A model generated the notes under the pieces. That model saw nothing but the letters and a program-made list of their open reading frames with translations, was not told the origin of the DNA and searched no databases. A stretch of 46,994 bases of DNA from Candidatus Methanobinarius endosymbioticus (GTDB lineage: Archaea > Methanobacteriota > Methanobacteria > Methanobacteriales > Methanobacteriaceae): positions 1 to 46,994 of the forward strand of contig NIZT01000029.1 in the NCBI GenBank assembly GCA_003315655.1, read 5' to 3'. This document shows, one piece after another, positions 10,372 through 37,535 of this stretch (positions within the stretch are counted from its first letter, which is position 1; every line of letters begins with the position of its first letter). The translations under genes were made by a program, and so were the position numbers.

Positions 10372-12826
10372 TTATTGGTTTTTATGCTTTTTCCTTCTAC
10401 CAATTAATCCTATTAAACTGATCAATATTAGTATTATTGTAATTATTGGTATTCCAGTTTCTTTCATAACTACAACTTTAGCAGTAGGTGGATCATTGCT
10501 TGTTTTATTTGTATCATTACTAGGAATAGGATCAGGAATAATTGGATCTGGAATTGGAGATATTGGTCTTGGTTTAGGATCAAGTCTCTTTTTAACATTA
10601 AAACTAAATGATTTAACTCTTCCTTCAAAAGTACCATTACCAACAAAGTTCACAGAAATATCTATTGTTCTTGGGCTTTTTGGAGTGTATTTTAAGCTCC
10701 ATCCACTAGTACTATTAGTTGTAACAGTAAATTTTTGACCATCCACAATTATTTCCAATTCTGCATTTGCTATTGGGTTTCCTAATTCATCAGTGATTGT
10801 ACCAGGGATTATGGTTTCCTCATCAACAACACTATCATTAGCACCACCAGTTATATTAGTGTTTAATTTAGCTACATTGAAGCTTGTAGTATTTGTAAAA
10901 CTTAAATGAATGTTATTTACCAGCAAAACTAACAATAACATTAAAAACACCGCTATATTGAGGTGTATTTTAAACTCCAGAAACCATCACTATCAGTTAA
11001 GGTAGTGAATTTTTCACCATTGATTGTGATAGTGATTTCTGCATTAGCTAAAGGATCACCATTATTATCAGTTATAACACCATTAATATTCACACTTTGT
11101 GTAGCATTAGTATCCTGTGCATTGACTGTAGTGTTTGCTGGGATTTTTGAAACAGAAAATACTGAACTATTAGTAAAACCATTATGAATAGAATTACCTC
11201 CCCAGATTACAGCTATATTGTAAAGTCCTTCATTTATTGGAATATAAGTTAAAACCCATAAACCAAGACCATCAGTACTTACAATATAAGATATACCATT
11301 TACATTTACTGTTATCGGAGTATTAGCTATTGGATCTCCATTGGAATCAAGAACTATACCATTTATATTGTTTTGTTGACCAAGTTGACCATTACTGAAT
11401 ATTATTGTTGAGTTAGTACTTGCTTTTGCAACATTAAATAAAGTAGTATTAGTAAAGTCAAGATGAGTAAGATTATCATTCCAAAACACAGTCACATAGA
11501 AACTTCCATCGATATTTGGTGTGAATGTTAATGACCATTTACCGTCACTATTGGTTGCAATGTTGTAAACCCATATGTTTTCATCATTGTTCTCAATGAT
11601 AATTTGGATATTCACAATACCTATAGGATTACCACTTTCATCAAGTGCAATACCAGATATGGTTATATTTTTTACCACACGAGCATTGTTATAAACATTG
11701 ATAGTTGAATTAGTTGCATACTGTGTTACTTCAAACTCAGTAATATTTACAAAGATTGTGTGTGTATCATTACCTACTCATTGAACTATAACATCAAAAA
11801 TACCAGGACTAGTGGCTAAATATGTTAGGTTCCATTGCCCTAGGCTATTGGTTGTTCTAGTAAATTTTTGAGTACCTATAGTAATGTTAACTATGATATT
11901 TGCTAGCGGATTTTCATTTTCATCCTAGCTACACCAGAAATATTAATGTTTGTACCGACTTTTGTACTATTTGTAACATTAATAGTTGATTGTGTTGGTA
12001 TTTTTGTAAGTTCAGTGATATTTAGTTCACCGTTTAAGATGTTGATTGGGTATCCTGTGTGTCCACCATAATCACCAATCACAGGAACAACAGCCGGACG
12101 CATAGAATTATTCACACGGAAAATTATCATAGCTTCCCCATCATTATTACTAGTTGCAAAACCAACAAGTGTTCCATTGACATAGAATGATATTTTTTGT
12201 CCTGTTATAGTATTACCCATATCATCGGTTAAAAGTGCATAAAGAATAACACTAGCACCATCAACCAAAACAGTACTGTTACTGGCGATATGTTAAATTT
12301 AAAATGGCCATACGACCCACATTATAGATCATAGGGCCAAAGATACTTGCAATATTACCAGACATAACATTACAACAATAGACATACTGCCAGAATTACT
12401 GATAGCACCACCACTAGCTGCAGTATTGTTGATGAATGTTATTGTTGAGTTTGAGTAGTTGTTGTTAATCGCTCCTCCGTTATTTGTTGTGTATGCGTTT
12501 ATGAATGTTAGGTTTATGAAGGTTATGTTTCTGTTGTTGCCTATTGTAAAGATTCTGTTGAGTCCTTGTGCGTCGATGATTACCTTATCGGGTGAGCTGT
12601 TTCCTTGTATTGTTAAGTTTTTGTTGATTGTGATTCCACGGTTATTGATTTTGTTGTAGATTCCTTATTGTAGTGTTAATGTGTCTCCTTCTCCAGTATT
12701 TGTTATTCCTGTACTTATTCCAGTTGAATTATCAATAGTCTGATCAGCTGCACTTACAGCTGAAAAACTAAAAACAAAAAATAATAATAGGAATATTGTT
12801 AATATAGTTATTAGCTCTTTTTTCAA
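10372..12826 (-). pseudogene. Adhesin-like surface protein A (about 818 codons originally), fragmented by many frameshifts and stops. It has a Pmp/beta-helix N-domain and repeated Ig-like/CarboxypepD_reg-like domains.
   Basis: TTG start at 12826 with a GGAGGTG RBS. Signal peptide (M)KKELITILTIFLLLFFVFSFSAVSAADQ. Repeating roughly 100-aa units (..NGVITDNNGDPLANAEITITINGEKFTTLTDSDGFWSLKYT..). C-terminus is a Pro-rich linker PKPRPISPIPDPIIPDPIPS, then ETGIPIITIILILISLIGLIGRRKKHKNQ*. The ORF track shows the pieces at 11903..12268, 10953..11678 and 10372..10950 in different frames. Confidence 0.7.
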
Positions 12827-13762
12827 CGTTTTTCACCTCCTTTATGCTCGATTAAATTTATTTATAACTTGATTTTAATATTTAGTAATATGATTTGATT
12901 ATATTACTTAAAAAGATAATATCTCATAAAAAAATTGTATGATATATATTCTTTTTATTTTTTATTAATAGAAGAAAATTACACCATAATAAAAATATGC
13001 TAATTTTCTTCTAACTAATAAAAACTGTAATTATTCAATATTATGTTTAAAAACTCCATTATTTTTCATACTATTTTTTATAATTTTTATCATATTTCAA
13101 TAAAACATATTAATTAATAATGAATAAATCTTTTTCTTTCAGTTTTTTCTTTATACAGTGATATAACGAAGTTGAAATATTAAACATATGAATATACAAA
13201 ATAATAGTGAGGAATCATTCATATTTCAATATACATGATATAGTAAATACTCACTGATAAACGGCTGTAAAGATTTGTGGGTTTATTTTTATTTTTTGAT
13301 ATATGGATTTTTTTCCATGAATAAGTGATATTAATAGAGTGATATTTAAAAATTCATTTTATTATTATTGTCTTATGAGTTATTATAATAATTTTTATTA
13401 GCTATTTACATCTAAAATTTTTTACAAAACAAATTTTTTTAGTGAACCTTTAGTCTTTATTAACTATATTTTCATCCCATAAAAATAGAGGAGAAGATAA
13501 TATAATTTTATTAAATTATTACATTTTTGAGTATATGTGAGAAAAAAATTTTTTGAAAATGATATATTTTCTATGAAGTTATGTTAAATGCCAAAAAAAT
13601 TTTATTTGAATATAATCATTTATATTATTACAGGCGTCATTAAAAATGTTTTTTCAAAACATCTGAAGAAAAATATAGTGAAATAATACATATAACAAAT
13701 AAAATAATCGATATGTTTGAAGAAAAAAAATTATATGAAAAATATAAAAATAAAATTATGAA

Positions 13763-14083
13763 TTGGAAACTATAAGAAAATTTTACAGATTATCTCCTAC
13801 TAAAAACAAAAAAAATTATTTTAAAATCATGAAAAATGATTTTGAAGAGATGGAAAAAGACAGTGTAAAAAACCAAGATTATATTATTAATCTTGAAGGT
13901 AGAAACAAGAATTTTTATTTAAATATATTTAGAGCAGATTCATTCCATGAATTAGATGCTTTAAATAGAATTGATGATTTAAAAATCGAAAATCACGACT
14001 TTAAAGTCAAAAATAGAGATTATAAGAAAAAAATAAAATCATATGAAAAGGAAACAAGAAAAATTTATTCTTCAAAAAGTTGA
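13763..14083 (+). CDS. Hypothetical Lys-rich protein. The annotated start is TTG; an upstream ATG at 13713 in another frame suggests a 5' frameshift.
   Basis: 106-codon ORF ending in TGA. No recognisable domain. MFEEKKLYEKYKNKIMN.. (13713) runs into it with a 1-nt offset at an A8 homopolymer. Confidence 0.3.
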   Translation: METIRKFYRLSPTKNKKNYFKIMKNDFEEMEKDSVKNQDYIINLEGRNKNFYLNIFRADSFHELDALNRIDDLKIENHDFKVKNRDYKKKIKSYEKETRKIYSSKS

Positions 14084-14117
14084 AAAATTACTAAGCCACT
14101 TAGAAAAGTAATGAATA

Positions 14118-15171
14118 ATGTTAAATAGCCTTGAAAAATTTAAAACTAGTTGGATGATAATTTTGAAAAAATTAGTTAATAATATAATTGAATTAAGTAT
14201 TGATGAAATCGATAAATTTAATTTTCATTATGGAGAATTTGAAGGTTTAAAAATAATAGAAGATGAAGTAGAATATGAGTTCTTATTTCGTTTTTCTAAA
14301 GAAAAGCACGATCTAATTTGTTTTAGATCAGATGCAATTGATAGAAATGGCCCTAATGCTTTAGATCCCCCTATATTTAGTAGACATAGTTGGAACAATC
14401 ATTTTAAAGAATCTGTTTTATATTATAATGATACAACATTATATAGATGAGAGTATTGGTGTGGGATGGTGTTTAAGAACTGAAGATAACTATTATCTTG
14501 AAATAATAGCTAAAATTATAGAAAAAATTGTAAAAAGAATTAATGTTAAAAATGAAGATATTTTGTTTTTTGGTAGCTCTGCTGGAGGTTTTACTTCAGT
14601 AATTTTAGGAACAATGTTTAAAAATTCTTATGTAGCAGTAAATAATCCCCAAATAGACTTAAAAAAATATCATCATTATGAAAAAGTTATGAAAGTGTGT
14701 ATGGTAATAAAGACCCAGAATTAGATGATAATTTGAAATACAGAACTAAGTTAATAGAAATATTGAAAAAGAAAAATATGTTCCTCCAATGAGTTATTAT
14801 GTAAATGCTGGGTCATGGGATGATATAATAAACATTGCACAACATTTACAAAAGGACTTAAAAGATTAAGTTTCTTAAAAGAAGTGAATATAAACATCTA
14901 TTTTGATTATAATGGATATGACACTATGAATAATAACGATTCTATACATATTATCAGAACCATGTGTAAAGAACGTTTATATAATTATGGAAAAAATAAA
15001 AGACAAATTAATCCAAATGACCTTATTAAACAACAAAAACGGTTGAAAAAGAAAAATAATCAATTGAAAAAAGAATTAAAAGAATATAAATCACGAAAAA
15101 GTGTTCGTATATTTGATAAAGTATCAAAAGTTAAAATCAAAATTTTAAATATTTTTAAAATAAATTTATAA
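14118..15171 (+). pseudogene. Alpha/beta-hydrolase-fold esterase-like protein, split into at least 3 pieces (14118..14450, 14428..14724, ~14700..14869, 14884..15171).
   Basis: Nucleophile elbow LFFGSSAGGFTSVILG (GxSxG). An Asp lies in ..YYVNAGSWDD.. downstream in a second frame. A candidate His lies in ..NNDSIHIIRT.. in a third piece. This order and spacing fit a Ser-Asp-His triad. The family is not recognised. Confidence 0.4.
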
Positions 15172-15309
15172 CAAACCAATAGAAATAATTATAAAGCATA
15201 ACTTAAAAATAAAATAGTAATATACATAAAAATGAAAATAAGAATAAAAAATTGGATTAAATAATAATAACATGTGAAAAATGTGTTATTTTAATGTATG
15301 GGTGTTTAA

Positions 15310-15669
15310 ATGGAATTAAAGGATATTTATGAAAATATAAATCTTAAGTCTCTTATTATTGGGGCAGCTTTATTTGCTTTTATAGTTGTTTTAGCTACAG
15401 AATACAACTTAGATATATTACTAATCTTTTCATCAGTAGGTCTTTTATATATTGGATACGGATCACGAAACAAACTTCAGAGTGTTGTATTAGGAGCTAT
15501 AGGAACATTACCACTATTTATAGCTACAGTATTCTTTGAAAGACTGGGACCAATCACAGGAGAAAATATAACTCTCTTAATATTAATCTCATTTTTAGCT
15601 ATAGGAGCTTTTTGTGGATTTACAGGATTTTATTTTAGTGAAAATAGGAAAAAAGCTATTGGACAGTAA
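15310..15669 (+). CDS. Small integral membrane protein (3-4 TM helices).
   Basis: 119-aa hydrophobic ORF. No recognisable domain. Confidence 0.4.
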   Translation: MELKDIYENINLKSLIIGAALFAFIVVLATEYNLDILLIFSSVGLLYIGYGSRNKLQSVVLGAIGTLPLFIATVFFERLGPITGENITLLILISFLAIGAFCGFTGFYFSENRKKAIGQ

Positions 15670-15835
15670 GAATCCATAGGAAAAGGAAGAAAAAAGAAGG
15701 AAAAAAGTAAAAAATAATACTTTATAATTAAAAATTAATTATAATTAATAAAAAAGAAAATAAAAAAATGATTAAAATAATAAAATATAATAAGAAAAAA
15801 TAAAACATAATGGATAAAAAAAATAAATTTATCCA

Positions 15836-18578
15836 TTAAAAATAAATATTTAAGTTATTTTTTGTAACAATCAATCCTAAACTACTTAATAAAACTAATA
15901 TTATAGCTAATAATGGAATTCCTGTAGTCTCATTGTTGCATTTGTTTTAGCTAGATTTTTATCAGTAATATTAGAGTTGTTTGTGTTATTAATATTGTTG
16001 GTATTATTAGTATGTTTGTGTTATTGTTTTTTGAAATATAAGTTGAAGTAAAATTATTACTGCCAAAATACATCTCATCTTCTTGGAAGGTTACATTAAA
16101 AGTATATTGTCCAGTTTTTTCGAATTTATAATTCAACTTAGCTATTCCTTTCTCATTAGTAATGGCACTTCCAATTAAAACTCCATTAACATGAAAATTC
16201 ACAGTTTTATTTGCAATTAATGCTTCAATTTCTTTATTTATTAATTTAACAACTAAAGTTACAGTTTCATTAATTTTTCCATTTACTTTTTCGATATTAA
16301 TATTAGTTGGAGTTTTATTTACAACCAAAAAAGCAATACTATTAGAAACAGGATAATCAAGATCTTCTAAAAATTCTGCAAAGATTGAGAAAGTTCCTGA
16401 AGCATTTGATTGATATTCAAATTTTGCAATTCCTTGGCTATCAATTATTTCACTACCCACATAAACTCCATTCACATGAAATCTAATGGTTTTATTGTTT
16501 AATGGATTGTTTGAATTATCAACTAATTTTGCAGTTAAATTAACTTTTTGTCCAGCTTTAACTGAAGAATTATAAACAGTAGTGTTGGTAATTGCAAAAT
16601 TTATTCCAATTATTGAGTTCTCATCGTCAGATGATGCATTCATCGAATAAAAGTTATCACTTGTCCATTTAAAACATGTAAAATATTAGTATCCCTAATA
16701 TCCCCATCCTGAATATTTTCATCAGGTGTTCTTACTGAAACTTCAAAGTAAGGTAAGTTTGTTGGATTATTTATCACAGGACTATTTGTAGATAAAAAAT
16801 AATTTAATTGAGACTTTGATTATTTTTGTAAGAAAGATTTTTATTTTGACTGAATTTTTGATTGTTTACAGATATCTGTAAAAAGTACCAATAATCAAAG
16901 ACTAAACCATTCCCAATATCAATAACTTGGGTTGTTGCAATTATTTACACCCCACCAGTTCAAATTAATATTATTACTGTTTCCAGAATTATATAAACCT
17001 ACTGAGTTTTCTACAATTCTATTATAATTAATATTATTGTTATTTCCAGTTAGATTCAATCCATAACCATCGTTGTTCATAACAGTTGAACTATTAAAGA
17101 TGTTATTACTACCTTGGATTATTATTCCATTACTATTATTTGCTATAGTAATATTTGTTAAATTATTGCCAACAACTGTAGAATTAATTATTAAACCAGT
17201 ATCTGTTAAATTTCCAATAGTAATGTTTTTTAATGTATTATTTACACCATTAATTAAAATTCCATTAAAATTACTTCTATTGATAAATCCATTTGATACA
17301 TTATTCCTATTTCCTTTTATAGCAAAAATATACTGATTGTTATTTACAGTGTTATTTAAAACATCAATATTTAAGTTTATATTTGTATCATCAAAATATA
17401 TTCCTAAAACACCGAAATTATCAGTGAAACTATTGTTTTTTAATGAATTTAATGGTTGATATGTTTCTACTGCAAAGTTATCATGATTTGTGAAACTATT
17501 TTTTTCTATAGTTATATTCCATCCAGTATTATAAATTGCACCACCTCTTGTAGAAGCATGGTTATTGTCAAAGATAGAATTAATTATAGTGACATTATGA
17601 CTTCCGGCAGAGTTCCATATTGTTCCACCAAATGAAGCATTATTATTTGAAAATAGAGTATTATTAATCAAGATATTTGATCAACTCCATTTATTGCTCC
17701 ACCACTGCCAAAAACTTTATTATTGGTGAAATTTGAGTTAATTACATTAATTCCTCCACCTAATGAAGAAATTACTCCTCCTCCAGAAGAAGAATTCTGT
17801 CCAGATACATTGTTATTTTATTAAATCTTGAAGAAATTATGGAAAAGTTAAATCCTGCATTGTTAAATATTGCTGCTCCTTGATATGCTGAATTGTTAGA
17901 GAAAGTAGTATTCATAATTCTTGAATTGCTCCCGTAGTTATTGTATATAGTCCCACCATGAGTAATATTATTTCCTGAAACATAATTACCCATAAAATTA
18001 GAATTTAGAATGTTTAAATTGTTACTAGCATTATTATAAATAGTTCCACCATCAATAATTCTAAAATTATCTTGGAAAGAAGAACCAGATATATTTAAAT
18101 TACCCCTATTAAATATTGCTCCTCCTTGAATAGCACTATTATTAATAAATGTACAATTTACTATTGTGAGCATTCCAGTATTTTTTAATGCTCCACCTTG
18201 ACCATTATAATATGCATTTATAAAAGTTACATTAATAAGAGTTAATTGACCATTTATAGCATTAAATATCCAGCTATTTCTAGAACCATTCATTATTGTA
18301 GAATTATTACCTATAATAATGAGATTTCGAGTATTAAATGTCAAATTAAGATTACCGCCACCAGTATACAGGTTATCATTTAAGTACATAGTTCCATTTC
18401 CACCATTAATAGTTTGTAATCGATTTATCCCGTCAATTAAAGTACTATCATTATTTAAAGAAACATTTCCAACCCCATTATTTATAACAACAACAGTAAT
18501 ACTTCCAATAGCTGAAAAAAGCACAAATAACATTAAAATACTTCATCGAAACAAAGTCGTTTTTTGCATAAATTTCAT
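15836..18578 (-). pseudogene. Adhesin-like surface protein B (about 914 codons) with Pmp-type / right-handed beta-helix repeats, fragmented.
   Basis: ATG at 18578 with a GGGGTGA RBS. Signal peptide MKFMQKTTLFR-TGA-SILMLFVLFSAIGS (in-frame TGA at codon 12). Repeats are of the form GGAIFN.GNLNISGSSFQDN..GGTIYNN. C-terminal Ig-like domains follow (..VNGVYVGSEIIDSQGIAKFEY..). The C-terminal anchor NNETTGIPLLAIILVLLSSLGLIVTKNN..* is reached only after a further frameshift. Confidence 0.7.
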
Positions 18579-18982
18579 GATTTCACCCCCTATCATGCAT
18601 TAGAGTTAATAAAATATATCACTTAGTGACATATAAATTTATCATGAAAATATCATGCAAAGATATGGACATATATATAATTATTCATATCCTTATTTTT
18701 ATTAAAAAATAAATTATTTTAATTTAAAAATAAGAAAAGATATAAATGAAATCTAAAAATATTATAATAAGATCAATATCAGATTATAATTGAAAGTATA
18801 AAAAATTTAACTAATTAAAAAAATAAATAAAATAGATAAAATTTAAAACTAAACATATTTAAGGATAGTTTAATTATTTATCCTTATTTTCTTTTTTTAA
18901 AATAAATTATACAATTTAAATAAATTAAATTAATAAAAAATTCTTGATAACTTAAAAAATATTTAATAATTATTAGTTAATA

Positions 18983-19020
18983 ATTAACAATTAACAATTA
19001 ACAATTAACAATTAACAATT
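18983..19020. repeat. Tandem microsatellite (ATTAACA)x5 plus a partial copy, with degenerate copies upstream (ttaataa / ttaacaa).
   Basis: Read directly from the sequence. It lies in the 656-bp divergent intergenic region between the adhesin-B start (18578, -) and the AKR gene start (19236, +). Confidence 0.9.
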
Positions 19021-19235
19021 TTTTATAATTTAAACAAGTATTTTGATATATAAAATATAGAGAATATTATAATATTATAATTATATATTTATATATTCGA
19101 ATATAAATTAAATATGATAAATTTTAAAATTAATTTCAAACATAATATTTTATAATTAAAACAATATTTATGAATAAAAATTGTAATTTATGATTAAAAA
19201 AATAATTAATTCAATAATAGAGAAGATGAACAGGA

Positions 19236-20378
19236 ATGAAATATAGAAAAATTGGAAATACTGGTATGTCAGCTAGTATTATTGGGCTTGGGACAGAATT
19301 TTTAGATGGTAAGCCATATAGTGTAGTAGAAGAAACTATAAATACTGCATTAGAAAATGATATAAATATCTTTGATGTATTCATGCCAGGAGAAGAAGTA
19401 CGTAAGAATATAGGAAAAGCGATTGGTGACAGACGAAAAAATGTCATCATACAAGGACATATTGGTTCAGTAGATTTAAACCAACAATATGATATTAGTC
19501 GAGACTTACATACATGTGAAAAATATTTTGAAGGATTAATGGAAAATCTCGGTACTGATTATATTGATATAGGAATGTTGTTTTTCATGGATACTGAAGA
19601 AGAACTTGAAAAACTTCATACAAATGGAATTATAGATTATGCTCTAGAATTAAAAGAAAAAGGAATTATAAAATCTATAGGAACTAGCTCCCACAATCCA
19701 AAAGTTGCTAAAAAAGTATTAGAAACAGGAATAGTGGATCTTTTGATGTTTAGTATCAATCCAGCATTTGACATGACATCACCAGATATAAATGTACTAG
19801 AAGAAATTGAAGAATTAGGAAAAAAACAACTTTTCACAGTTGACTCTGAACGGAAAGAACTTTATAAATACTGTGAACAACAAAACATTGCCATCACAGC
19901 CATGAAAGCTTTTGGAGGAGGAGTAATTTTATCTAAAGATGATTCTCCATTTAAAAAGGAAATGACACCAGTTCAGTGTATTGATTATGTATTATCACGT
20001 CCTGGAGCAATAAGTGCAATGGTTGGATGTGAATCTGTTGAACAAGTAGAAGAAAGCATGAAATATCTAAATAGTACACCTGAAGAACGTGATTACATAG
20101 ATATAATTAGTGAATATCAAGAAGGATTTGATGGTAAGTGTGTTTATTGTAATCATTGTCAACCATGCCCTTCTAATATAGACATAGCTATGGTTAATAA
20201 ATATCTTGACATTGCAATATTAGATACTAATAAAATTCCTCCAAGCATTATTCAACACTACAAATCATTACCAGTAAATGGTACAGATTGTATTGCTTGT
20301 GGAAACTGTGAGGAAAAATGCCCATTTTCTGTCCCGGTGATAAAAAATATGGAAAAAGCAGCAAAATTATTAGAATAA
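19236..20378 (+). CDS. Aldo/keto reductase fused to a C-terminal 4Fe-4S ferredoxin-type domain (COG1453-like Fe-S oxidoreductase).
   Basis: MKYRKIGNTGMSASIIGLGTEF.. is an AKR N-terminus. Two Cys clusters follow: CVYCNHCQPCP and CIACGNCEEKCP. 380 aa, intact. Confidence 0.85.
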   Translation: MKYRKIGNTGMSASIIGLGTEFLDGKPYSVVEETINTALENDINIFDVFMPGEEVRKNIGKAIGDRRKNVIIQGHIGSVDLNQQYDISRDLHTCEKYFEGLMENLGTDYIDIGMLFFMDTEEELEKLHTNGIIDYALELKEKGIIKSIGTSSHNPKVAKKVLETGIVDLLMFSINPAFDMTSPDINVLEEIEELGKKQLFTVDSERKELYKYCEQQNIAITAMKAFGGGVILSKDDSPFKKEMTPVQCIDYVLSRPGAISAMVGCESVEQVEESMKYLNSTPEERDYIDIISEYQEGFDGKCVYCNHCQPCPSNIDIAMVNKYLDIAILDTNKIPPSIIQHYKSLPVNGTDCIACGNCEEKCPFSVPVIKNMEKAAKLLE

Positions 20379-20479
20379 TACAAAAATATCACTTTTTAAA
20401 TTGATAAACATTAAAAAAACATGAATAAAAAATTGAATTAAGGATGAAAAAATAATATCCTTATAAAAACTGTTTTAAA

Positions 20480-22615
20480 TTATTTTTTTCTATATACTAC
20501 TCCTATGCTGCTAATGATACTAAGATTATAGCTATTATTGGTAATCCCCTATTGATTTTCATATTAGCATTTGTTTTTATATGATTACTAGTGTTTTTAT
20601 GATTAGGTTTAGGGTTTGGAATTTTATTAATTTCAATAGATAAAGACACGATAATAGCCTGATATAATTCACTACCAATATAATCAGCTGTGATTGTATA
20701 TCGACCTGTTTTATCAAACGTATATTTAATCACTGCAACATCATTTTCATTAGTTATTCCAGAACCATTAATTTTCCCATTGATATAAAAATTAACACGT
20801 TCATTGCTAATTGGATTGCCATTTTCATCAGTTAATGTTCCACTGATAATTACAGTACTACCTGGTTTTTTATCACCAATATCTTCAATAACAAGATTAG
20901 TTGAATATTTTTCAATATTGATAGTTTTATTAGAATTACTAATTATAGTAATCAGCGTTTCCTTGGAAATTAGAGTTTATATCATAAGAACCAACACTAT
21001 TAAATATATGATTTAGAGTTGCAACACCATCTGTATTTGTTATTGCAGAACTATAATTATTTTTCATTGATATAAAAATCGATTTGTTACTTGCTTAATG
21101 GATTATTATTGTCATCAGTTAATTTGCTTTCAATAGTGATATTTTTTCCTAGACTAATGTTATTTTTAATTTTATTTGATTTTTAGTAGAAATTTTATCT
21201 ATTTTCAATAGACCATTATTTAGTATAATAGAAAATCCTTCATGTCCAGAATAATTTCCTGTAACAAGAACTAGTGTATTAGGTTATTAGTAACATTATA
21301 GGTAAAATTTGCATAACCTTCTGTTGAAACTACATCTGCTAAATGAGTACTAGTAAGATAAAAAGAAATAATTTGTCTAGTGACTGTATTTCCCATATCA
21401 TCTGTCAAAGTAGCATAAACAATAATATTTTGACCTTTTTTAGTAGTAATAGTCTCATTATTTAGATAAGTCAAATTAAGAGTCCCTATATTTCCAATAT
21501 TATAAATCATTTGACCTAAATTAGCAGAATTACCAGTTATCTTATTACCTAAAACTGTCATATTACCTTGATTATATATACTACCACCAAAATTTCTAGC
21601 TTTATTATTTACAAAAGTAGAATTTTTTATATTAGAAGTTTTACCATTATTGTAAATAGCACCGCCCTAATAGCATAATTATTCTCAAAATGGAATTAGT
21701 CAAATTCATTAAACCATTTTCATTTATAAATATTGCACCACCATCAACAACAACAGCACCATTGTTCATAAATTTAATATTTTTTATATTAGCTGTTTAA
21801 TTAGGATTAAGAAAAACAGCACCACCATTAACATTAGCAAAATTATCAGAGAATATAGAATCATTAATAGTTAAATCATCACCATTATTAATAAAAATTC
21901 CACCACCTTCAGAAGCAATGTTATTAGTGAAATTACTGTTAGAAATATTGGATTTGGAATTTGTATTAAAAAATATAGCTCCACCATGACCTGAAAATCC
22001 ACCATCACCAATATAGCTTGGACTATTAGAAAAACTGGAATTAATTATATACATATTATTATCACTATTATAAATAACTCATCCTAATCCTCCATAATAA
22101 CTATTAAGAGTGTTATTAATAAAATTTGTGTTCATAATTTTCATATCATCACCAGTATTATAAATAACACCACCTGCACTAGAAAAATGAGTGGTAGCTG
22201 TGTTATTGATAAAATCAAGATTATTTAATGTTATTTTTCCCCCATCATTATAAATAGCACTACCATTATCACTCAAACCATTGATTAAAGTAATATTTAT
22301 TAATGTAAGTGTTCCATTACTATGCATATTAAAAATTCTACCTAGATTTTGAGCATCAATAATCGTGTTTTTCTTATTTTTTCCTATTATTATGATATTT
22401 TTATCTATAGTGATATTAGTAACATTATTTCTATATTTTCCACTATTTAAATGTATAATACTTCCATTAGGAGTATTTTCTATAGTTTGTCCTAAATTAT
22501 CACCACTAGTTATATTAGTTTCAACAGCACTAACACTTGACAAACTAATAGTAAATAAGATTACCAATAATGCTAATAAAATCATGATTGAAGTAGATTT
22601 TGCATTAATTTTCAT
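20480..22615 (-). pseudogene. Adhesin-like surface protein C (Pmp/beta-helix repeats plus Ig-like domains), fragmented.
   Basis: ATG at 22615 with GAGGTGA upstream. Signal peptide MKINAKSTSIMILLALLVILFTISLSSVSA. Repeats include GGAIFFNTNSKSNISNSNFTNNIASEGGGIF. An Ig-like domain (..TLTDDMGNTVTRQIISFY..) is homologous to one in adhesin A. C-terminus ..NRGLPIIAIIL|SIISSIGVVYRKK* needs a frameshift. Pieces in the ORF track are 22079..22615, 21797..22054, 21271..21561 and 20503..20733. Confidence 0.7.
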
Positions 22616-23194
22616 AAATTTCAGATTTTCACCTCTTTTAATTCAGTATATTAAATTTCTAAATATAATCATTATAATTATATAATTATTAATTATAATT
22701 TATTTAATTTATAGTTTTATTGTTAAATATTAATATTTTTTATAAATAATTAATGTAAAATAAAACATGAAATAAATAAATTTTTTGTTGAAAATATAAA
22801 TAAATTATGAAATAATTTTGATAAAAATATTTTTTATAAGAATTGAATATTATATAGCAAAAATAAAAAAGTTAAATGAAGATAGAAAAACTTTTGAATA
22901 AAATTGAAAAATAATGATATAATTTAAAAAATATATATTTAAATATTATATCACTTAAAGAAATAGATAGTAAATATAAAATAATAGAATTTTAAATAAA
23001 ATATAATGGGGCAATTTATTGAATTGAGAATAAATTTTATTATTAAATTTTATTTAATATTTATTTTTTACTGAATATATTTTTAGTTTATTTTAAAATA
23101 TTAAAATAAATTATGATATTGTTTTGAATAAATTTAATTTATGGAGTTAATTTTATCGAAGAATATTTGAAAATTATTTTAGGTGGGTAAATAA

Positions 23195-23859
23195 ATGGAA
23201 AAAAAATAAGCTTTTTATATGTATTATGATTGTGAGTGCTATTGGAATATTAACTGTGGTGGGAGACGGCTTTTTCACAGGGCCTGATTTATCTTTAAGC
23301 AACAAAAATATATTAATATTAGCTAGTGACAAAACTGAACAACCTGGAGGCGGTGTGGACATGGTATTTATGGTTAGATTGGAAAATGGAAGTATAAAAA
23401 ATATGTTGTTGTATATCCAGGAGGGAGAACACATCCTACCCAACCAGCTCCAGGTAATCTTCAAAGAAAAATGCTTCTTCATGATTATCTATGGAATGGC
23501 CCAGAACAAGGAATGCAATATGCAAAAGAAATAGTTGAATCCGGTACTGGAAAAAAGTCACTGCAGTAGTAGTCGTTTATGATGAAGGTTTAGATTCTGT
23601 TATAGATTCTATGAGGCCACTTAAAATTGATGGAGAAGAAACTAATCTCAGTTCAACAGATATTGTAAGATAAAATGACAATTATTCTGATTATATTGGT
23701 AGAAATAATAGTATTACAGGAAATATGTCAAAAGGAGATTCAGTGATGATACTAGTTAAAGCACTTTCACAAGCCGCCACAGATCCAAGTAAAAGAAATA
23801 CTATGGTTCAAACAGCTTTAGATGAATATTCCAAAGGAAATATTATGATGAATCCATAA
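23195..23859 (+). pseudogene. Probable LytR-CpsA-Psr (LCP) family cell-envelope protein, with at least 3 frameshifts and 1 in-frame TAA.
   Basis: AGGTGG RBS, then ATG GAA AAAAAAAA TAA. Removing one A from the run gives MEKNKLFICIMIVSAIGILTVV (TM anchor). Downstream across frames: ..ILASDKTEQPGGGVDMVFMVRLENGSIKNM | VVYPGGRTHPTQPAPGN..YLWNGPEQGMQYAKEIVESGTGKK | VTAVVVVYDEGLDSVIDSMRPLKIDGEE..VR-TAA-NDNYSDYIGRNN.. This resembles the LCP core. The family call is tentative. Confidence 0.4.
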
Positions 23860-23928
23860 GGATCTTTTATGGGCTTATTAACTATAAAAGGACTTGAAAA
23901 TCTTACATAGCTAAAAATAAGATTTTAC

Positions 23929-23961
23929 AAATGAGTTAGTATTAAATAGACTAGCTCATTT
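23929..23961. terminator. 11-bp stem hairpin (aaatgagttag-N11-ctagctcattt, one G-U) followed by T-rich sequence, between convergent genes.
   Basis: Read directly from the sequence. It lies 3' of both the LCP pseudogene (+) and the MBL gene (-). Confidence 0.35.
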
Positions 23962-24109
23962 ACATATAAATTTTTAAAAAAATTATTTCTTTTAATTATT
24001 TTATTTTTTATCTTTAATTATATTTATTTAACTTTATTTTTTCATTAGCTATTATAATTAAATTAGATAAAAAAATACACCAATTTCTATTTTTAATGCA
24101 TTACAATTG

Positions 24110-24913
24110 TTAAACATCAATTAAATCAGTAGGATCGTCCTTTTGGGTGAAAGCTATAATATTAAGAGAATCTGAAAATAAACTGCACTTTTTAGATAAA
24201 ATATCCTTAACTGATTTTAATGCAATAGATTTATTATTGTGGTCATTACTCATATGAGATAATACAATAGTATGTATATTTTCATTAATACAATTAGATA
24301 AAACATTTCCACAGTCTTCATTAGACAAATGTCCAAGTTTACTAAGAATTCTTCGTTTATTAAATTCCGGTCGATTTCCATTTAAAAGTAAATCTACATC
24401 ATGATTACTTTCAATTAAATAAAGATCAGCGGATTTAAGTATTGACAAAAGTTCGCAGTTTACATGGCCAATATCTGATAAACATACTAATTTTTTATTT
24501 TTGTGTTCAATCATGTAAAATTGAGAGTTAACAGAGTCATGACTAGTAGAAAATGCAGTGAACTTTAAATTATCTAAAATAATACTTTCATCAGATTCTA
24601 TAAAATTTAATGAATCTGGATTTATAGAACCTGTTATTCTTTTAAATTTATCACAGGTCAGTGTATCTTTATTTCCATAGAGCAATGTGTCATGACAACG
24701 ATTAATAACTCCAACACCCCTTATGTGATCTACATGTTCATGAGAAACAAAAATAGCTTTAATAACACTTAAATTCTTATCAATTTTGTTTAAAAGAATT
24801 TCAGTTCGTTTTTTACTTAAACCTACATCTAGTAATATTGGAGTTTCATTGCTTTCTATATAAATAATATTTCCACTAGATCCACTGGCTAAAACAGATG
24901 ATTTTAAACTCAA
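24110..24913 (-). CDS. MBL-fold metallo-hydrolase (YycJ/PhnP-like beta-lactamase superfamily).
   Basis: N-terminus ..LASGSSGNIIYIES.. and the HxHxDH motif VSHEHVDHIRG, with further His/Asp ligands downstream. 267 aa, intact. Confidence 0.8.
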   Translation of the reverse strand: MSLKSSVLASGSSGNIIYIESNETPILLDVGLSKKRTEILLNKIDKNLSVIKAIFVSHEHVDHIRGVGVINRCHDTLLYGNKDTLTCDKFKRITGSINPDSLNFIESDESIILDNLKFTAFSTSHDSVNSQFYMIEHKNKKLVCLSDIGHVNCELLSILKSADLYLIESNHDVDLLLNGNRPEFNKRRILSKLGHLSNEDCGNVLSNCINENIHTIVLSHMSNDHNNKSIALKSVKDILSKKCSLFSDSLNIIAFTQKDDPTDLIDV

Positions 24914-25232
24914 ATTGACTCATCCTGATTAAATATATGTTTAATAATACATATTTAGAAAAAATACTTTAAAATAAAATAATTTATAATTAATCTTTAA
25001 AAAGTTTAAATTAATAATATATATTTAAATTATTAATACCTATTTAATAGGCAATTATTTTTTTATTATTAGTAATATAAATCTGTTAAATATTTAAATA
25101 ATATTTATTATATAATTTTATAATGAAATATGTAATATTATAATGATCATATAATAAATTGTAATTAATGATGTAATAACTATTAAAACATGATGATATA
25201 GAAATATAATTAGTTGATTAATATGTCGAAGG

Positions 25233-25820
25233 ATGAAAAACTCTAAAAAAGAATTAATAGATGAAAAACGTTGTGGTTGGGCAGGATCAGATCCTATTTA
25301 CATCAAATATCATGATGAAGAATGGGGAAAAGAAGTTACAGACGATCAAAAAATGTTTGAATTTATAGTATTGGAAAGTGCACAGGCAGTATTAAGCTGG
25401 ATAACAATCCTCAAGAGACGAAATGTTTATAAAAATGCTTTTGCAAATTTTGATCTAGAAAAAGTGTCTAAAATGACTGAAAAGGATGTTGAACGCTTAA
25501 TAGAAGAAGGAGAAATTATTCACCACAGAGGAAAGATAGAAGCTACAATAATCAATACCCAACATTTTTTAGAAATAAAAAAAGAATTTGGTAGCTTTTG
25601 TGATTATTTAAAATCATTTTTACCAGATGATAAGCCTATTGTTTATCATGGGAAAACATTAGATGAAATTCCTGCTTCAACACCTTTATCTGAGACAATA
25701 GCTAAAGATATGAAAAAACGAGGCTTTAAATTTTTTGGACCAGTAATCTGTTATGCTCATTTACAAGCAACAGGTTATATAAATGATCATTTAGAAGAAT
25801 GTCCATTTAAATATGATTAA
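25233..25820 (+). CDS. tag: DNA-3-methyladenine glycosylase I (Tag).
   Basis: CGWAGSDPIYIKYHDEEWGKEV..FEFIVLESAQAVLSWITILKRRNVYKNAF..IIHHRGKIEA.. is collinear with bacterial Tag, including the Zn-binding Cys/His positions. Confidence 0.8.
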   Translation: MKNSKKELIDEKRCGWAGSDPIYIKYHDEEWGKEVTDDQKMFEFIVLESAQAVLSWITILKRRNVYKNAFANFDLEKVSKMTEKDVERLIEEGEIIHHRGKIEATIINTQHFLEIKKEFGSFCDYLKSFLPDDKPIVYHGKTLDEIPASTPLSETIAKDMKKRGFKFFGPVICYAHLQATGYINDHLEECPFKYD

Positions 25821-25981
25821 ATTAGTTCAATGTGTCATTTTAATAATAAATAGAATAATAAAAATAGTAAAATTATGATAATTTGAGTTTGATTTAAAAT
25901 CATTTGATTATTTGATCTTGAGATATTGTAATCATGAGTTAGTGTGATCATTAACTATATTTAAAATATTTATTTAATAAA

Positions 25982-26624
25982 TTAAATAAATATTTTATTT
26001 TTATAATGCATTTCTATTGCAAATGATATTATATCATATATTAGGTGCATTATGAATGATACAAAGACGTTTTTAGTTTTTAGATACCCATACATTATAA
26101 AAAGAGAAATTAATCCTTGTAGAAGTATTACTGATATGATATTTCCATAAGCAGGTAAATGTAATATTCCAAAAATTAATAGAGTTATGTTGGTTGATAT
26201 TGTAATACTTAATTTTCTATTTTCAGTTATTTTATAAAATAAAGTTAATAAAATTAAAAATGGTATTATTTTTATTAATTCTTCACCAAATATTTGGAAT
26301 GGAAATATTAGCCAGAAAAAGAGAGATCCTATTTCAATATCTGCAGAATTAACATGAATATGTAAATTTAATCCTTTAATTAGAATAAAACCTACTACTA
26401 TAATAAAAATAAATTGTAGAATGACTATAGTAATAATAATTTTAATAATTTTTTTGAAGTTTTTTACAGATTAAATTATATTTCCAGTTTGCTACAAATC
26501 CAAATACCAAAAAAGGCATTATGAAATACAAAAGGCTTTCAGCTCTAACCACTAAATGAATAAGGAATTAAAATCAATATCATGGAATTATCACAGATAT
26601 AGCTAATAAAATCCAATTCCCCAT
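25982..26624 (-). pseudogene. CPBP-family intramembrane metalloprotease (CAAX protease / Abi-like), with N-terminal frameshifts and stops. It is not in the supplied ORF track.
   Basis: Reverse-strand translation gives ..IFGEELIKIIPF.. (EExxxR-like motif 1), ..LLIFGILHLPAYGN.. (FxxxH motif 2) and ..SFIMHLIYDIISF.. (HxxxD/N motif 3) in one frame without an ATG. The upstream MGNWILLAISVIIP.. lies in another frame, with TGA/TAA between. Confidence 0.55.
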
Positions 26625-27017
26625 GCTTAATTTAGGATTATTTTTATAAAAAGGAAAATCTAACCCTTTTCTTTCAAATTTAAAAATTCAGATTTCTTAT
26701 CAGAATTTATGTCTTTCAATTTATCACCTTAAAATATTCTTGCTTATAATAATTAAAATAAACTAAAATTATTTTAATCATTCAATTATAAAATTATAAA
26801 GTTTATAAAGTTATTATCTATGTAACAAGTATATTATATTTAATTGGTTAAAAATATATAAAATTAAATTATTCTCATATTAAATTATCCCTTTCAATGA
26901 AAGTTTAATTATAGAATTTTATTTATAAATTTACTAAAAAAGAATAAATAAGAATATAATAAGGAATAGATAAGGATAAAATAATTAATTTATCCTAAAA
27001 CTAAAAATTGTTTATAA

Positions 27018-28970
27018 TTATTGTTTTTTATATGTTAATCCTAAACTAGCTAACAAGACTAAAATAATAGCTAATATATGTATGCTTGTTGGTTTCATAC
27101 TTGCATTTACATTATTTTCAATTGGATTTTTCTTGGTTTTATTTGTTTCATTTTTATCCGGATTTGGTATTGGTGGAACTGGAGGAACTGGAAGAACAGG
27201 AGGTTCTGGTTCTTGAGGCAAGCTAACATTTAATATTATATCTTCATCATCAGATAAAGATTGAATACTGTAAACAACTTTACCTTTAACAAAGTAGCTT
27301 AAACTAGTATTACAAATATCAGCAGTTCTTATTTCTCTATTTGGACCAATAATAGTTACCATGAATTCTGGTAGCTGATTTGGATCATGTTCTGTTGGGA
27401 TATTTGTAGATAATTCGTATTTTAATGTTGCATTGTAACGATTTTGATAATTCTTAGTGGCATTTTTAAGTGTTTCTATTTCTTCAGCTGATAATTTGAG
27501 AACATACCATGTTTTAATTGGGTTAAAACCAGTGAAGTTGAAATTTGGAAAATTAAGTCCCCACCAATTTAATTCAGCACTATTGTTAGCTACAGAATCC
27601 ATTACAATTATTTGATTTTGTATTATTATAAATACGATTATAGGTTATGTTAGTGTTGTTAAGATAGTCAAATAGTCCTTCTAAATATATTCCAATATTA
27701 TTGTTTATTATATCATTAGATTTGATATTATTATTTTAATGAATTTTGAGAAATACTATTTTTATTAAATTCAGAATAAAAATATGATGAATTGGAGCCT
27801 AAACTAATTCTTATTAAATTATTATAAAGAGTGTTATTTTTTATAAAGTTATTATCAGCAATACCATAAATTGAGACATGATATATATTCCACGTTTTAT
27901 TGTTTGTAATTATATTTTTTTCAATAATATTATTGTTTATTATTGAATATATTGTGTTGTTGTTATTTAAACCAACAGCCAAATAATATTCCATTTTCAT
28001 CATTATTATCAATAATATTATTTTTTACAGTATTGTTAATTATATATCCTATATAAAAATCTCCACCAACTTTTAAATAAATACCATTATCAGAATTATT
28101 TTTTGTAACATTATCTGTTATGGTGTTATTTTTAATATTAGGAAATCCTTTGATATAAATACCATTTCCATCGTTATTATTTCCAGTGTTATTACTTACA
28201 GTACTATTTTCAAAAAAGTTACCATTAAAAGAAATTCCACCCCAACTATTATTATTTCCAGTGTTATTTTTTAATATGAAATGATCCATAATATACAGAA
28301 CCACCTATTCCATAATATTTATTATTATTATTAGCTATATTATTCGATACAATACCATTATTTATCACAGATGCTCCAATTGAAATTCCGTATTCTCCAT
28401 TATTATTACCAATATTTCGAGATATTATTGTATTTGAACTATCATAAGCATCATATAAGTAAATTCCAGTCCATAAGTTGTTATTTACCGTATTATTCAT
28501 AATAATAGTATCTGTGAGATTATCTTTATGATAACGGATAGAAGGTATTATATAAATACCATAGGCATTTTTAATTAAATTATTATTTGTTATGGTTGTT
28601 TTACTTGAATTAAAAAATATACCACAGTAATAATTTTCAAAATAAAACCCAAAAATATTCACATGGGTACTGTAATGTTTAATAGTGTAGGACATGAATA
28701 CTTATAACCATCCCATTTTCCAATGCATTTAGTCTGTTTATTTGATTTAATATTCAGTGATTTATTGATTTTAATCTCCCAATCACACTGATCAATGTCA
28801 AATATTACTGTAGATCCTTCATCAGCAGCATTCATCCAATTATTCATATTATAATGATCAATTGTTCTATTATCAGTTATTGTATAGTTAGCTGCACTAA
28901 CTGAGCTTATAAATACTGTTAAAGTTGTTAAGACTAATAAAATAATTAGAATATTTTTTATTTTTTTCAA
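27018..28970 (-). pseudogene. Adhesin-like surface protein D (NosD-like right-handed beta-helix repeats), fragmented into at least 5 frames.
   Basis: TTG start at 28970 with a GGAGGTGA RBS 5 nt upstream. Signal peptide (M)KKIKNILIILLVLTTLTVFISSVSAAN. Asn-rich beta-helix repeats ..NNSWGGISFNGNFFENSTVSNNTGNNNDGNGIYIKG... C-terminal PP-rich linker PEPPVLPVPPVPPIPNP, then KPTSIHILAIILVLLASLGLTYKKQ*. Confidence 0.7.
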
Positions 28971-29163
28971 ATTTTCACCTCCCTGTTTTTATCATATAAT
29001 ACTATATAATTAAAACTATAAAAAATATACTATTCAGTCGGTATTCAAATAGATAAAATGAAATTATAAAATAATATATTGAATATAAATAATGATAAAA
29101 ATTATGAAAAAATGAAAAATGAAAATAAATAAAAATATAATTAATATTTAATTGAGAATAAAT

Positions 29164-37127: not shown

Positions 37128-37535
37128 ATGGAAAAATACAAAGATTTATTGAATAGAGCTATTGATCAGCTCCCACCAGAAGTTTTTGAAACAAAAAGAT
37201 TTAGTGTTCCAAAAGCTTATTCAGTTATACAAGGAAATAGAACTTTTGTTCAAAATTTTAAAGAAATAGCTGAAGCTTTAAATAGAGATCCTCAACATTT
37301 ATTAAAATTCTTACTTAGGGAATTAGGTACTGCTGGGAATTTAGAAGGTGGAAGAGTTATTTTACAAGGTAAATTCACTCATTTTTTAATAAATGAAAGA
37401 ATAGATGAATATGTTGAAAAATTCGTTATGTGTCAAGAATGTAATAGACCAGATACAAGAATTATCAGAGAAGATAGAATATTCATCTTAAAATGTGCGG
37501 CTTGTGGTGCTAAAGCTCCACTAAAAACATTATAA
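37128..37535 (+). CDS. eif2b: Translation initiation factor 2 beta subunit (aIF-2 beta).
   Basis: 135 aa with a C-terminal zinc ribbon ..[29 protein letters not shown] lies upstream. Confidence 0.9.

Follow-up and report, generated by a model that had tools for sequence, protein, structure and literature searches.

Adhesin-like proteins (ALPs) of Methanobrevibacter are the main candidates for the attachment of gut and rumen methanogens to hosts, protozoa, and H2-producing bacteria, and they are also targets of anti-methanogen vaccines; their mode of fixation to the envelope is poorly understood. This question is raised by four ALP genes, here termed A, B, C, and D, on contig NIZT01000029.1 of Candidatus Methanobinarius endosymbioticus (the window in the following is this whole contig of 46,994 bp, with a G+C content of 20-32%), all of which end in a similar C-terminal module and all of which appear to be broken. 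What was the module for, and are the genes that carry it dead? The organism, formerly Methanobrevibacter sp. NOE and hereafter NOE, is a methanogen that lives as a putatively obligate endosymbiont in Nyctotherus ovalis, a ciliate of the cockroach gut, and has a genome of 1.9 Mb and about 25% G+C (PMC11287868); the observations on NOE made here come from this one contig of the genome. An initial annotation, made from the sequence alone, had placed the four genes on the minus strand, and their coordinates were confirmed (Table 1). The open reading frame (ORF) at the C-terminus of gene A, with 192 residues, is identical to ALNOE001_11690 of Ca. M. endosymbioticus. The module itself proved to be a true family motif with position-specific conservation, as opposed to generic hydrophobicity.

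Conservation and distribution of the C-terminal module

As a query, the 192-residue C-terminal ORF of gene A matched only itself, and the stitched gene A product (821 residues) was needed to reach homologues. A total of 222 homologues were retrieved with it, the top match (9.8e-134) being a 'beta strand repeat-containing protein' of M. cuticularis and the best homologues being intact ALPs of M. cuticularis, strain TMH8, and M. arboriphilus (the latter under the name 'adhesin-like protein'). Among the 120 matches listed, about 78 end in a uniform tail, e.g., ...ATATMKNTGIPIIAIILVLITIFGISIRRKQN, and the remaining ones are truncated fragments or carry a different ending that is basic and non-hydrophobic; inspection of the last 50 residues of these non-module homologues revealed no terminal transmembrane helix.

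Alignment of 79 modules (alignment A1) uncovered a constant layout, consisting of an A-x-A-x lead-in, a near-invariant M-K-x-T-G-[IML]-P, a hydrophobic helix of 18-19 residues, and an R/K tail of 3-5 residues. The initial annotation had described a [T/R]G[I/L]P helix followed by a basic tail and proposed that it was worth defining as a family motif by aligning C-termini and building a profile; the conserved module was recovered by this check, with its invariant core starting two residues earlier, at M-K. The information content reached 4.22 bits at M, 3.65 at K, 4.22 at T, 3.99 at G, and 3.76 at P, compared with 2.8 bits at the Ala three residues ahead of M and approximately 1.3-3.4 bits (mostly 2-3) along the helix. 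T was kept in 78 of the 79 sequences and G in 75, part of which is by construction, as the sequences were selected by [TS][GSA] followed by a hydrophobic run, a rule that does not bear on the conservation of M, K, P, and the upstream Ala. Directly before M-K-x-T-G, columns 16-19 of A1 form a small-residue, A-x-A-like lead-in, [ATVSG]-x-A-[ATS], which resembles a -3/-1 peptidase site and may belong to the recognition element.

A search (hmmsearch) of 1.84 billion representative proteins with the A1 profile yielded 317 clusters at E ≤ 1e-3 and 59 at E ≤ 1e-10, and the match ended no more than three residues from the protein C-terminus in about 147 of the best 150 of the 317. Across 191 modules, the exact string MKxTGxP was present in 161, 18 residues (interquartile range 18-19) separated G from the first basic one, and the tail comprised about four residues, of which about three were K or R. 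By a crude rule (K/R plus a hydrophobic run), an N-terminal signal-like segment was detected in 105 of 149 apparently full-length members. In free-living relatives, the module stands at the end of long intact ORFs, which in M. cuticularis (11 loci), M. filiformis, and metagenome-assembled genomes from termite guts are uninterrupted over 459-1495 codons; M. arboriphilus and strain TMH8 provide further cases. In addition, it was found on small proteins of 170-520 residues with a signal peptide but without a Pfam domain (P0136, P0151, P0173, P0199, P0203, P0212, P0175, P0228, and P0180), whose ectodomains, of no recognised family, share this anchor. These results show the module to be a conserved cassette that is strictly C-terminal and occurs on unrelated ectodomains.

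Regarding its taxonomic range, the module was documented only in arthropod-associated Methanobrevibacter clades, as seen by a scan of loci in genome contigs and by homologue search. The scan used a narrower alignment (A2), i.e., the pattern MK[ENK]TGIPI, which limits the range seen, and a homologue search with 14 divergent modules, aimed at other clades, gave one weak match. No synteny was found between the intact genes of the window and the fetched module loci. Seven M. cuticularis paralogues (L001, L004, L005, L006, L009, L011, and L012) are nearly identical over their last 36 residues (DNPVA[TI]ATMKNTGIPII[AT]IILVL...), suggesting that one ALP subfamily has evolved in concert or expanded recently. 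Two short contigs (L002 and L013; 27% G+C), which carry the label 'MAG: Bacteroidota bacterium', encode Methanobrevibacter-type module proteins and are probably mis-binned archaeal contigs. Moreover, a second ALP ending, '...KLKLKVYRPIK', basic and non-hydrophobic, was observed in P0022, P0023, P0058, P0059, P0066, P0070, P0075, and P0084; it and the module are mutually exclusive, and it may be a different, wall-binding mode of attachment.

Among the four NOE genes, the consensus motif is retained in gene A only and is damaged in B, C, and D (three of the four), which is what relaxed selection predicts (Table 1). The tail of the gene B module is probably frameshifted as well, given that it reads ...YKK followed by a stop in another frame and that the present stop lies seven codons late, while the gene C module shows T replaced by R plus one extra residue. 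The module DNA is 58-71% identical among the four genes, with synonymous differences, by which recent gene conversion as the source of their likeness was ruled out. The likeness of A to D is confined to the last 45 residues, and that of B to D to the module and an NWWG-type domain. The resemblance of the modules among A-D is accordingly best explained by past selection on the peptide, as judged from the sequences.

Comparison with known sorting signals and the candidate enzyme

All 79 modules were scanned against NCBIfam release 20 at E ≤ 10 and against Pfam. LPXTG_anchor (TIGR01167) was the best resemblance to a known model, though a weak one, with matches in 17 of the 79 modules and a best E of 0.0037, and Gram_pos_anchor (PF00746) of Pfam matched two. 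PGF-CTERM (TIGR04126) matched none even at this permissive threshold, which agrees with the initial annotation in separating the module from PGF-CTERM, and GlyGly-CTERM likewise gave no match among the 79. Scattered sub-threshold matches were obtained with other NCBIfam CTERM models, namely Heimdall-CTERM (10 of 79), JDVT-CTERM (3), CGP-CTERM (2), PEP-CTERM (1), and PEF-CTERM (1). No anchor annotation was present in the precomputed Pfam lists or the NCBI names of the intact homologues, full-text literature searches turned up no description of an MKxTGxP motif or of archaeal sortase substrates, and the supplement of the 2024 ALP paper contained none of the motif strings. The module thus appears to be undescribed, with no Pfam or NCBIfam model covering it.

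Among characterised signals, those of the LPXTG/LAXTG type, the substrates of sortases A and E (TIGR01167 and PF00746), likewise occupy the extreme C-terminus of adhesins that are repeat-rich and Sec-exported, consist of a short motif with T-G at its end followed by a hydrophobic helix and an R/K tail, and occur on many substrates per genome that are unlinked to the enzyme gene. The host wall is also peptide-cross-linked (pseudomurein), with one class-E-like sortase according to the literature. The LPXTG pentapeptide itself is absent, whereas the signal peptide and the succession of motif, hydrophobic segment, and positively charged C-terminal tail are present; the module starts with M-K rather than L-P or L-A, has an invariant Pro two residues past the G, and is devoid of the 3-8-residue spacer between motif and helix. 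PGF-CTERM, recognised by archaeosortase A, shares with the module an archaeal three-part layout at the extreme C-terminus of surface glycoproteins, a motif flush with the helix, and a preceding low-complexity, glycosylatable linker, but the module has no P-G-F motif, and PGF-CTERM proteins are lipid-anchored in S-layer organisms, while the hosts of the module have a pseudomurein wall. Since the T-G core is shared, LPXTG-type sortase signals are the nearer analogue in form. A class III (prepilin-like) signal was also considered, on account of the MKK..G-hydrophobic look and weak Flp1_like matches, and was rejected on the grounds of its opposite topology, as prepilin peptidases work at the cytoplasmic face whereas the motif is extracellular.

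The published ALPs of M. ruminantium, M. smithii, and M. stadtmanae resemble the products of A-D in their signal peptide, right-handed beta-helix/Pmp and archaeal Ig-like repeats, and Asn/Thr richness. For them, the literature mentions no more than 'a C-terminal TM domain' in some members (14 in M. ruminantium M1 and 11 in M. smithii) or an M1-C domain, and, different from these Methanobrevibacter and Methanosphaera proteins, the four NOE copies are all pseudogenes.

The following scheme is proposed for the ancestral products of A-D. They would have been Sec-exported, heavily N-glycosylated surface proteins composed of beta-helix and Ig-like repeats, each ending in a lineage-specific three-part signal, which is named MKxTGxP-CTERM. 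After export, the helix and its positive-inside basic tail would keep the protein in the membrane, so that M-K-x-T-G lies at the outer face, where a dedicated enzyme would recognise the motif. The likeliest candidate for this enzyme would be the single class-E-like sortase of pseudomurein-walled methanogens, restricted to them among archaea, which would cleave the T-G bond and attach the protein to pseudomurein, in the way in which LPXTG proteins become attached to murein. Inside the host cell adhesion would have become useless and selection would have lapsed, upon which AT-biased mutation and small indels would have destroyed A-D, including three of the four motifs.

In every characterised case, i.e., LPXTG/sortase, PEP-CTERM/exosortase, and PGF-CTERM/archaeosortase, a motif followed by a helix and a basic tail is the hallmark of a C-terminal sorting signal (PMC6098224). 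In a pangenomic study, every pseudomurein archaeon had a single class-E-like sortase (PF04203/cd05830), and other archaea had none (PMC11915815); canonical LPxTG proteins number only one or two per genome in these methanogens (PMC2812497). Furthermore, M. stadtmanae is reported to have no sortase and to anchor almost all of its ALPs at the N-terminus only, in contrast with M. smithii and M. ruminantium, in which a sortase is present and 11 and 14 ALPs, respectively, have a C-terminal helix (PMC2812497; PMC11532034). The T-G core, the pseudomurein wall, the one sortase per genome, the scarcity of LPxTG proteins, and the M. stadtmanae contrast make the sortase the leading candidate. We infer that the module is processed rather than a permanent anchor, and a probability of roughly 50% is given to the reading that it is a processed sorting signal with a sortase as the most likely enzyme. 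The fuller proposal, in which MKxTGxP-CTERM would be the missing substrate signal of the archaeal sortase, with cleavage between T and G, covalent attachment of ALPs to pseudomurein, and a system now decaying in the symbiont, is tentative and less likely than not.

Several observations weigh against a sortase. The Pro or Ala of LPXTG/LAXTG is missing and M-K occupies positions 1-2; the direct abutment of motif and helix is a geometry more like that of exosortase, archaeosortase, or rhombosortase signals; and the LPXTG_anchor model aligns, in gene A, to the helix and tail only (profile positions 12-34), leaving the motif outside the alignment. The sortase is reported in all pseudomurein archaea, whereas the module was documented only in arthropod-associated Methanobrevibacter clades, and the conserved genomic neighbour of the sortase is a DUF515/CpaB protein and not an ALP (PMC11915815). 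A permanent transmembrane anchor also fits the module sequence equally well. Under such a reading, MKxTGxP next to the membrane would be a structural cap (a helix N-cap Pro and a snorkelling Lys) or a contact site with the envelope, in line with earlier Methanobrevibacter ALP work, which treats C-terminal helices as membrane anchors (PMC2812497; PMC11532034), with the constant 18-residue spacing from a motif flush with the helix to the basic tail, and with the lack of a dedicated enzyme gene adjoining any of the 20 loci examined. No sortase-like ORF with the pattern [LIVM][TSA][LIVM]xTC was present in about 149 kb of related loci, and no linked enzyme gene was found beside a module-bearing ALP in one complete genome. 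A plain anchor leaves unexplained, however, why five extracellular residues (3.7-4.2 bits) are more conserved than the helix, why they are conserved on unrelated ectodomains and across species with diverged DNA, and why the same three-part arrangement marks a processed signal in every other known case (PMC6098224). A plain anchor is hence regarded as possible, but somewhat doubtful.

It is also conceivable, though rather unlikely, that the module is processed by an enzyme other than a sortase, such as an archaeosortase/exosortase-like enzyme or an intramembrane protease of the rhomboid/rhombosortase kind, resulting in lipid anchoring or release of the ectodomain. Like the module, PGF-, PEP-, and GlyGly-CTERM signals have a motif that directly adjoins the helix. 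A cut between T and G in the T-G-I context of the module would place M in P4, a small residue in P1, and a hydrophobic one in P2', which would fit the published recognition pattern of rhomboids, and the weak matches to Heimdall-CTERM and other CTERM models stand beside those to LPXTG_anchor. Against such an enzyme, PGF-CTERM and GlyGly-CTERM are without a match among the 79 modules and PEF-CTERM and PEP-CTERM have one weak match each, archaeosortases are assigned by reviews to 'a subset of Euryarchaeota' with no mention of Methanobacteriales (PMC6098224), no literature evidence for an archaeosortase in Methanobrevibacter was found, and a sortase is known in these organisms (PMC11915815).

Such a sharply defined C-terminal signal provides an annotation model for telling envelope-anchored ALPs apart from other Asn-rich repeat proteins, and a marker for tracking the loss of the surface proteome as methanogens become endosymbionts. 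It also supplies a concrete, testable substrate and thus a handle on the function of the sortase conserved in all pseudomurein archaea; if true, the sortase reading would describe an archaeal counterpart of Gram-positive surface-protein anchoring.

Decay of the four genes in the endosymbiont

Reading paths through A-D were stitched by eye against paralogous repeats and then tested by tblastn with 120 intact homologues, which cover A, B, C, and the C-terminal part of D; lesion counts are minimum values along the path supported by homology. In total, they amount to at least 22 frameshifts plus 10 in-frame stops, i.e., 32 lesions across 9.3 kb of ALP genes versus none across 13.6 kb of 14 neighbour genes, consistent with the earlier description of all four genes as multiply broken. 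The module-bearing ORFs of relatives are uninterrupted, unlike A-D. Genes A-D are dead, that is, pseudogenes.

That the genes are instead alive, with the disruptions being sequencing or assembly errors, phase-variable switches, or recoding events (programmed frameshifts or a reassigned stop), is highly improbable, even though the assembly derives from an uncultured endosymbiont and TGA does not terminate any of the 14 intact genes (12 TAA, 2 TAG, and 0 TGA). Apart from the contrast in lesions with the 14 neighbour genes, the frameshift junctions are ordinary mixed sequence without long homopolymers, which disfavours both homopolymer sequencing error and slipped-strand phase variation. The ten in-frame stops are of two kinds, five TAA and five TGA, one TGA having replaced the TGG of a Trp that the neighbouring repeats conserve, and the 14 intact genes of the contig, including those encoding MCM, a MutS-like protein, and tyrosyl-tRNA synthetase, show neither a lesion nor an in-frame TGA. 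TGA reassignment is thereby ruled out, and the genetic code is standard and the damage gene-specific; the zero TGA stops of the intact genes are due to AT bias and not reassignment. In addition, motif residues that are near-invariant elsewhere are replaced in B, C, and D, and independent reports counted many pseudogenes in the NOE genome, namely 95-209 by automatic methods and about 187 by manual curation (PMC11287868).

Gene decay in this endosymbiont is already known, and pseudogenisation is ordinary for such an organism. The decay resembles that of surface genes in other obligate intracellular symbionts, in which many frameshifts and stops accumulate in envelope and adhesion genes while housekeeping genes stay intact, and in which the genome is AT-rich with many pseudogenes, but differs in that NOE is an archaeal example, of which few are known. 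Because full-length gene remnants are still recognisable, the decay is at an early stage, and A-D provide an unsurprising but clean case of early genome erosion in one of the rare archaea known to live inside cells. The initial annotation took the loss of all four genes to mean that the organism no longer needs its surface adhesion repertoire; in an obligate intracellular endosymbiont with so many curated pseudogenes, a lost need for surface adhesins is the natural reading of four dead genes.

A 2026 comparative survey of annotated ALPs listed 0 in M. endosymbioticus, compared with 114 in M. arboriphilus, 45 in strain TMH8, and 80 in M. cuticularis, which are among its nearest relatives (PMC13135261 Table S3a). 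The zero may be an annotation artefact, because the NOE genome carries the submitter annotation and the survey counted NCBI product names. Artefact or not, remnants of the NOE ALP repertoire persist as pseudogenes on this contig.

Gene layout, start signals, and other open reading frames in the window

By their signal peptides, repeats, homology, and Asn/Thr and sequon content, A-D belong to the Methanobacteriales ALPs. Pfam searches of the ORF fragments detected Chlam_PMP, Beta_helix, and NosD in the N-terminal halves, where NCBIfam added para_beta_helix, and Big_1, Big_3_5, and CarboxypepD_reg in the C-terminal halves, in support of the Pmp/beta-helix and Ig-like repeats noted initially. Asn accounts for 13-20% of the residues. 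The many N-x-S/T sequons that had been remarked on exceed composition-matched shuffles 1.3-1.8-fold, clearly so in A (35 vs 19.5 ± 3.9), B (53 vs 29.6 ± 4.3), and D (31 vs 17.1 ± 3.5), with z of about 4-5, and weakly in C (26 vs 19.5 ± 3.6). The classical signal peptide ascribed to each gene was found in A, C, and D, with a K-rich n-region, a hydrophobic core, and an end of the form ...SAVSA or SSVSA, and not in B, in which it is interrupted by a TGA and its cleavage region is degenerate. Likewise, the Pro/Thr-rich linker ascribed to all four does not apply to B, whose linker is Asn/Thr-rich and not Pro-rich.

Table 1. Positions of genes A-D and their features in the window
Feature	Position	Strand	Description
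Gene A	10372..12826	-	ALP pseudogene, ~817 codons; Pmp/beta-helix N-terminal part, then ~5 Ig-like/CarboxypepD_reg repeats
Ribosome-binding site of A	12833..12840	-	Perfect GGAGGTGA; TTG start 6 nucleotides downstream
Signal peptide of A	12749..12826	-	LKKELITILTIFLLLFFVFSFSAVSA
Lesions of A	TAA 12667-12665; TGA 11780-11778	-	At least 5 frameshifts; 2 in-frame stops
C-terminal module of A	10372..10467	-	MKETGIPIITIILILISLIGLIGRRKKHKNQ, then stop; only undamaged copy; 53.4 bits against the family profile (as P0001)
Gene B	15836..18578	-	ALP pseudogene, ~919 codons; Pmp/beta-helix, NWWG-type domain, 2 Big_3_5/Big_1 domains
Ribosome-binding site of B	18583..18590	-	GGGGGTGA, one mismatch; ATG 4 nucleotides downstream
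Lesions of B		-	At least 5 frameshifts; 5 in-frame stops
C-terminal module of B	15836..15933	-	M-R-L, 1-nucleotide deletion inside the motif, then TGIPLLAIILVLLSSLGLI
Gene C	20480..22615	-	ALP pseudogene, ~712 codons
Ribosome-binding site of C	22629..22636	-	AGAGGTGA, one mismatch; CTG 4 nucleotides and first ATG 13 nucleotides downstream
Lesions of C		-	At least 7 frameshifts; 3 in-frame stops
C-terminal module of C	20480..20562	-	Degenerate MKINRGLPIIAIILVSLAA (MKINRGLP...), 1-nucleotide deletion, then IGVVYRKK and stop
Gene D	27018..28970	-	ALP pseudogene, ~654 codons; parallel beta-helix/NosD repeats, NWWG-type domain, Pro-rich linker
Ribosome-binding site of D	28975..28982	-	Perfect GGAGGTGA; TTG start 4 nucleotides downstream
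Lesions of D		-	At least 5 frameshifts; 0 in-frame stops
C-terminal module of D	27018..27098	-	Degenerate MKPTSIHILAIILVLLASLGLTYKKQ, then stop (MKPTSIHILAIIL...YKKQ and stop); G to S, P to H

The strong Shine-Dalgarno sequence attributed to each gene was verified, being perfect in two and one mismatch away in the other two. In the window, the perfect form occurs at two sites only, both preceding ALP pseudogenes (A and D), and a window scan revealed no comparable match upstream of the other genes, save GGAGGAGA before the gene at 37128. The ALP genes seem to have once had unusually strong translation signals, which outlast the coding regions. The CTG of gene C at 22624-22622 aligns with the 'MKFM' start of gene B, suggesting that the ancestral initiator of gene C probably lay at this position and has since mutated to CTG.

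Other ORFs of the window were noted as well. Between A and B, four short successive ORFs (95-110 residues) lie on the plus strand at 13763-15171, probably a further decayed gene, the sole match there being a weak one of one ORF to UPF0227 (esterase-like). Two overlapping ORFs of 102 residues each occupy opposite strands at 23174-23534, between gene C and a metallo-beta-lactamase gene, in a stretch to which nothing else is assigned, and the plus-strand one, the sole one scanned, had no family match. An Lhr-type large helicase at 4249-6108 on the plus strand is split into at least three ORFs (Helicase_C, WH_Lhr, and DEAD_assoc) and is a pseudogene unrelated to the adhesins, and two ORF fragments at 43633-45839 on the minus strand match Peptidase_U32 and look like a broken, possibly duplicated U32 peptidase gene. 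The fragmented helicase and peptidase are consistent with a general erosion of the genome.

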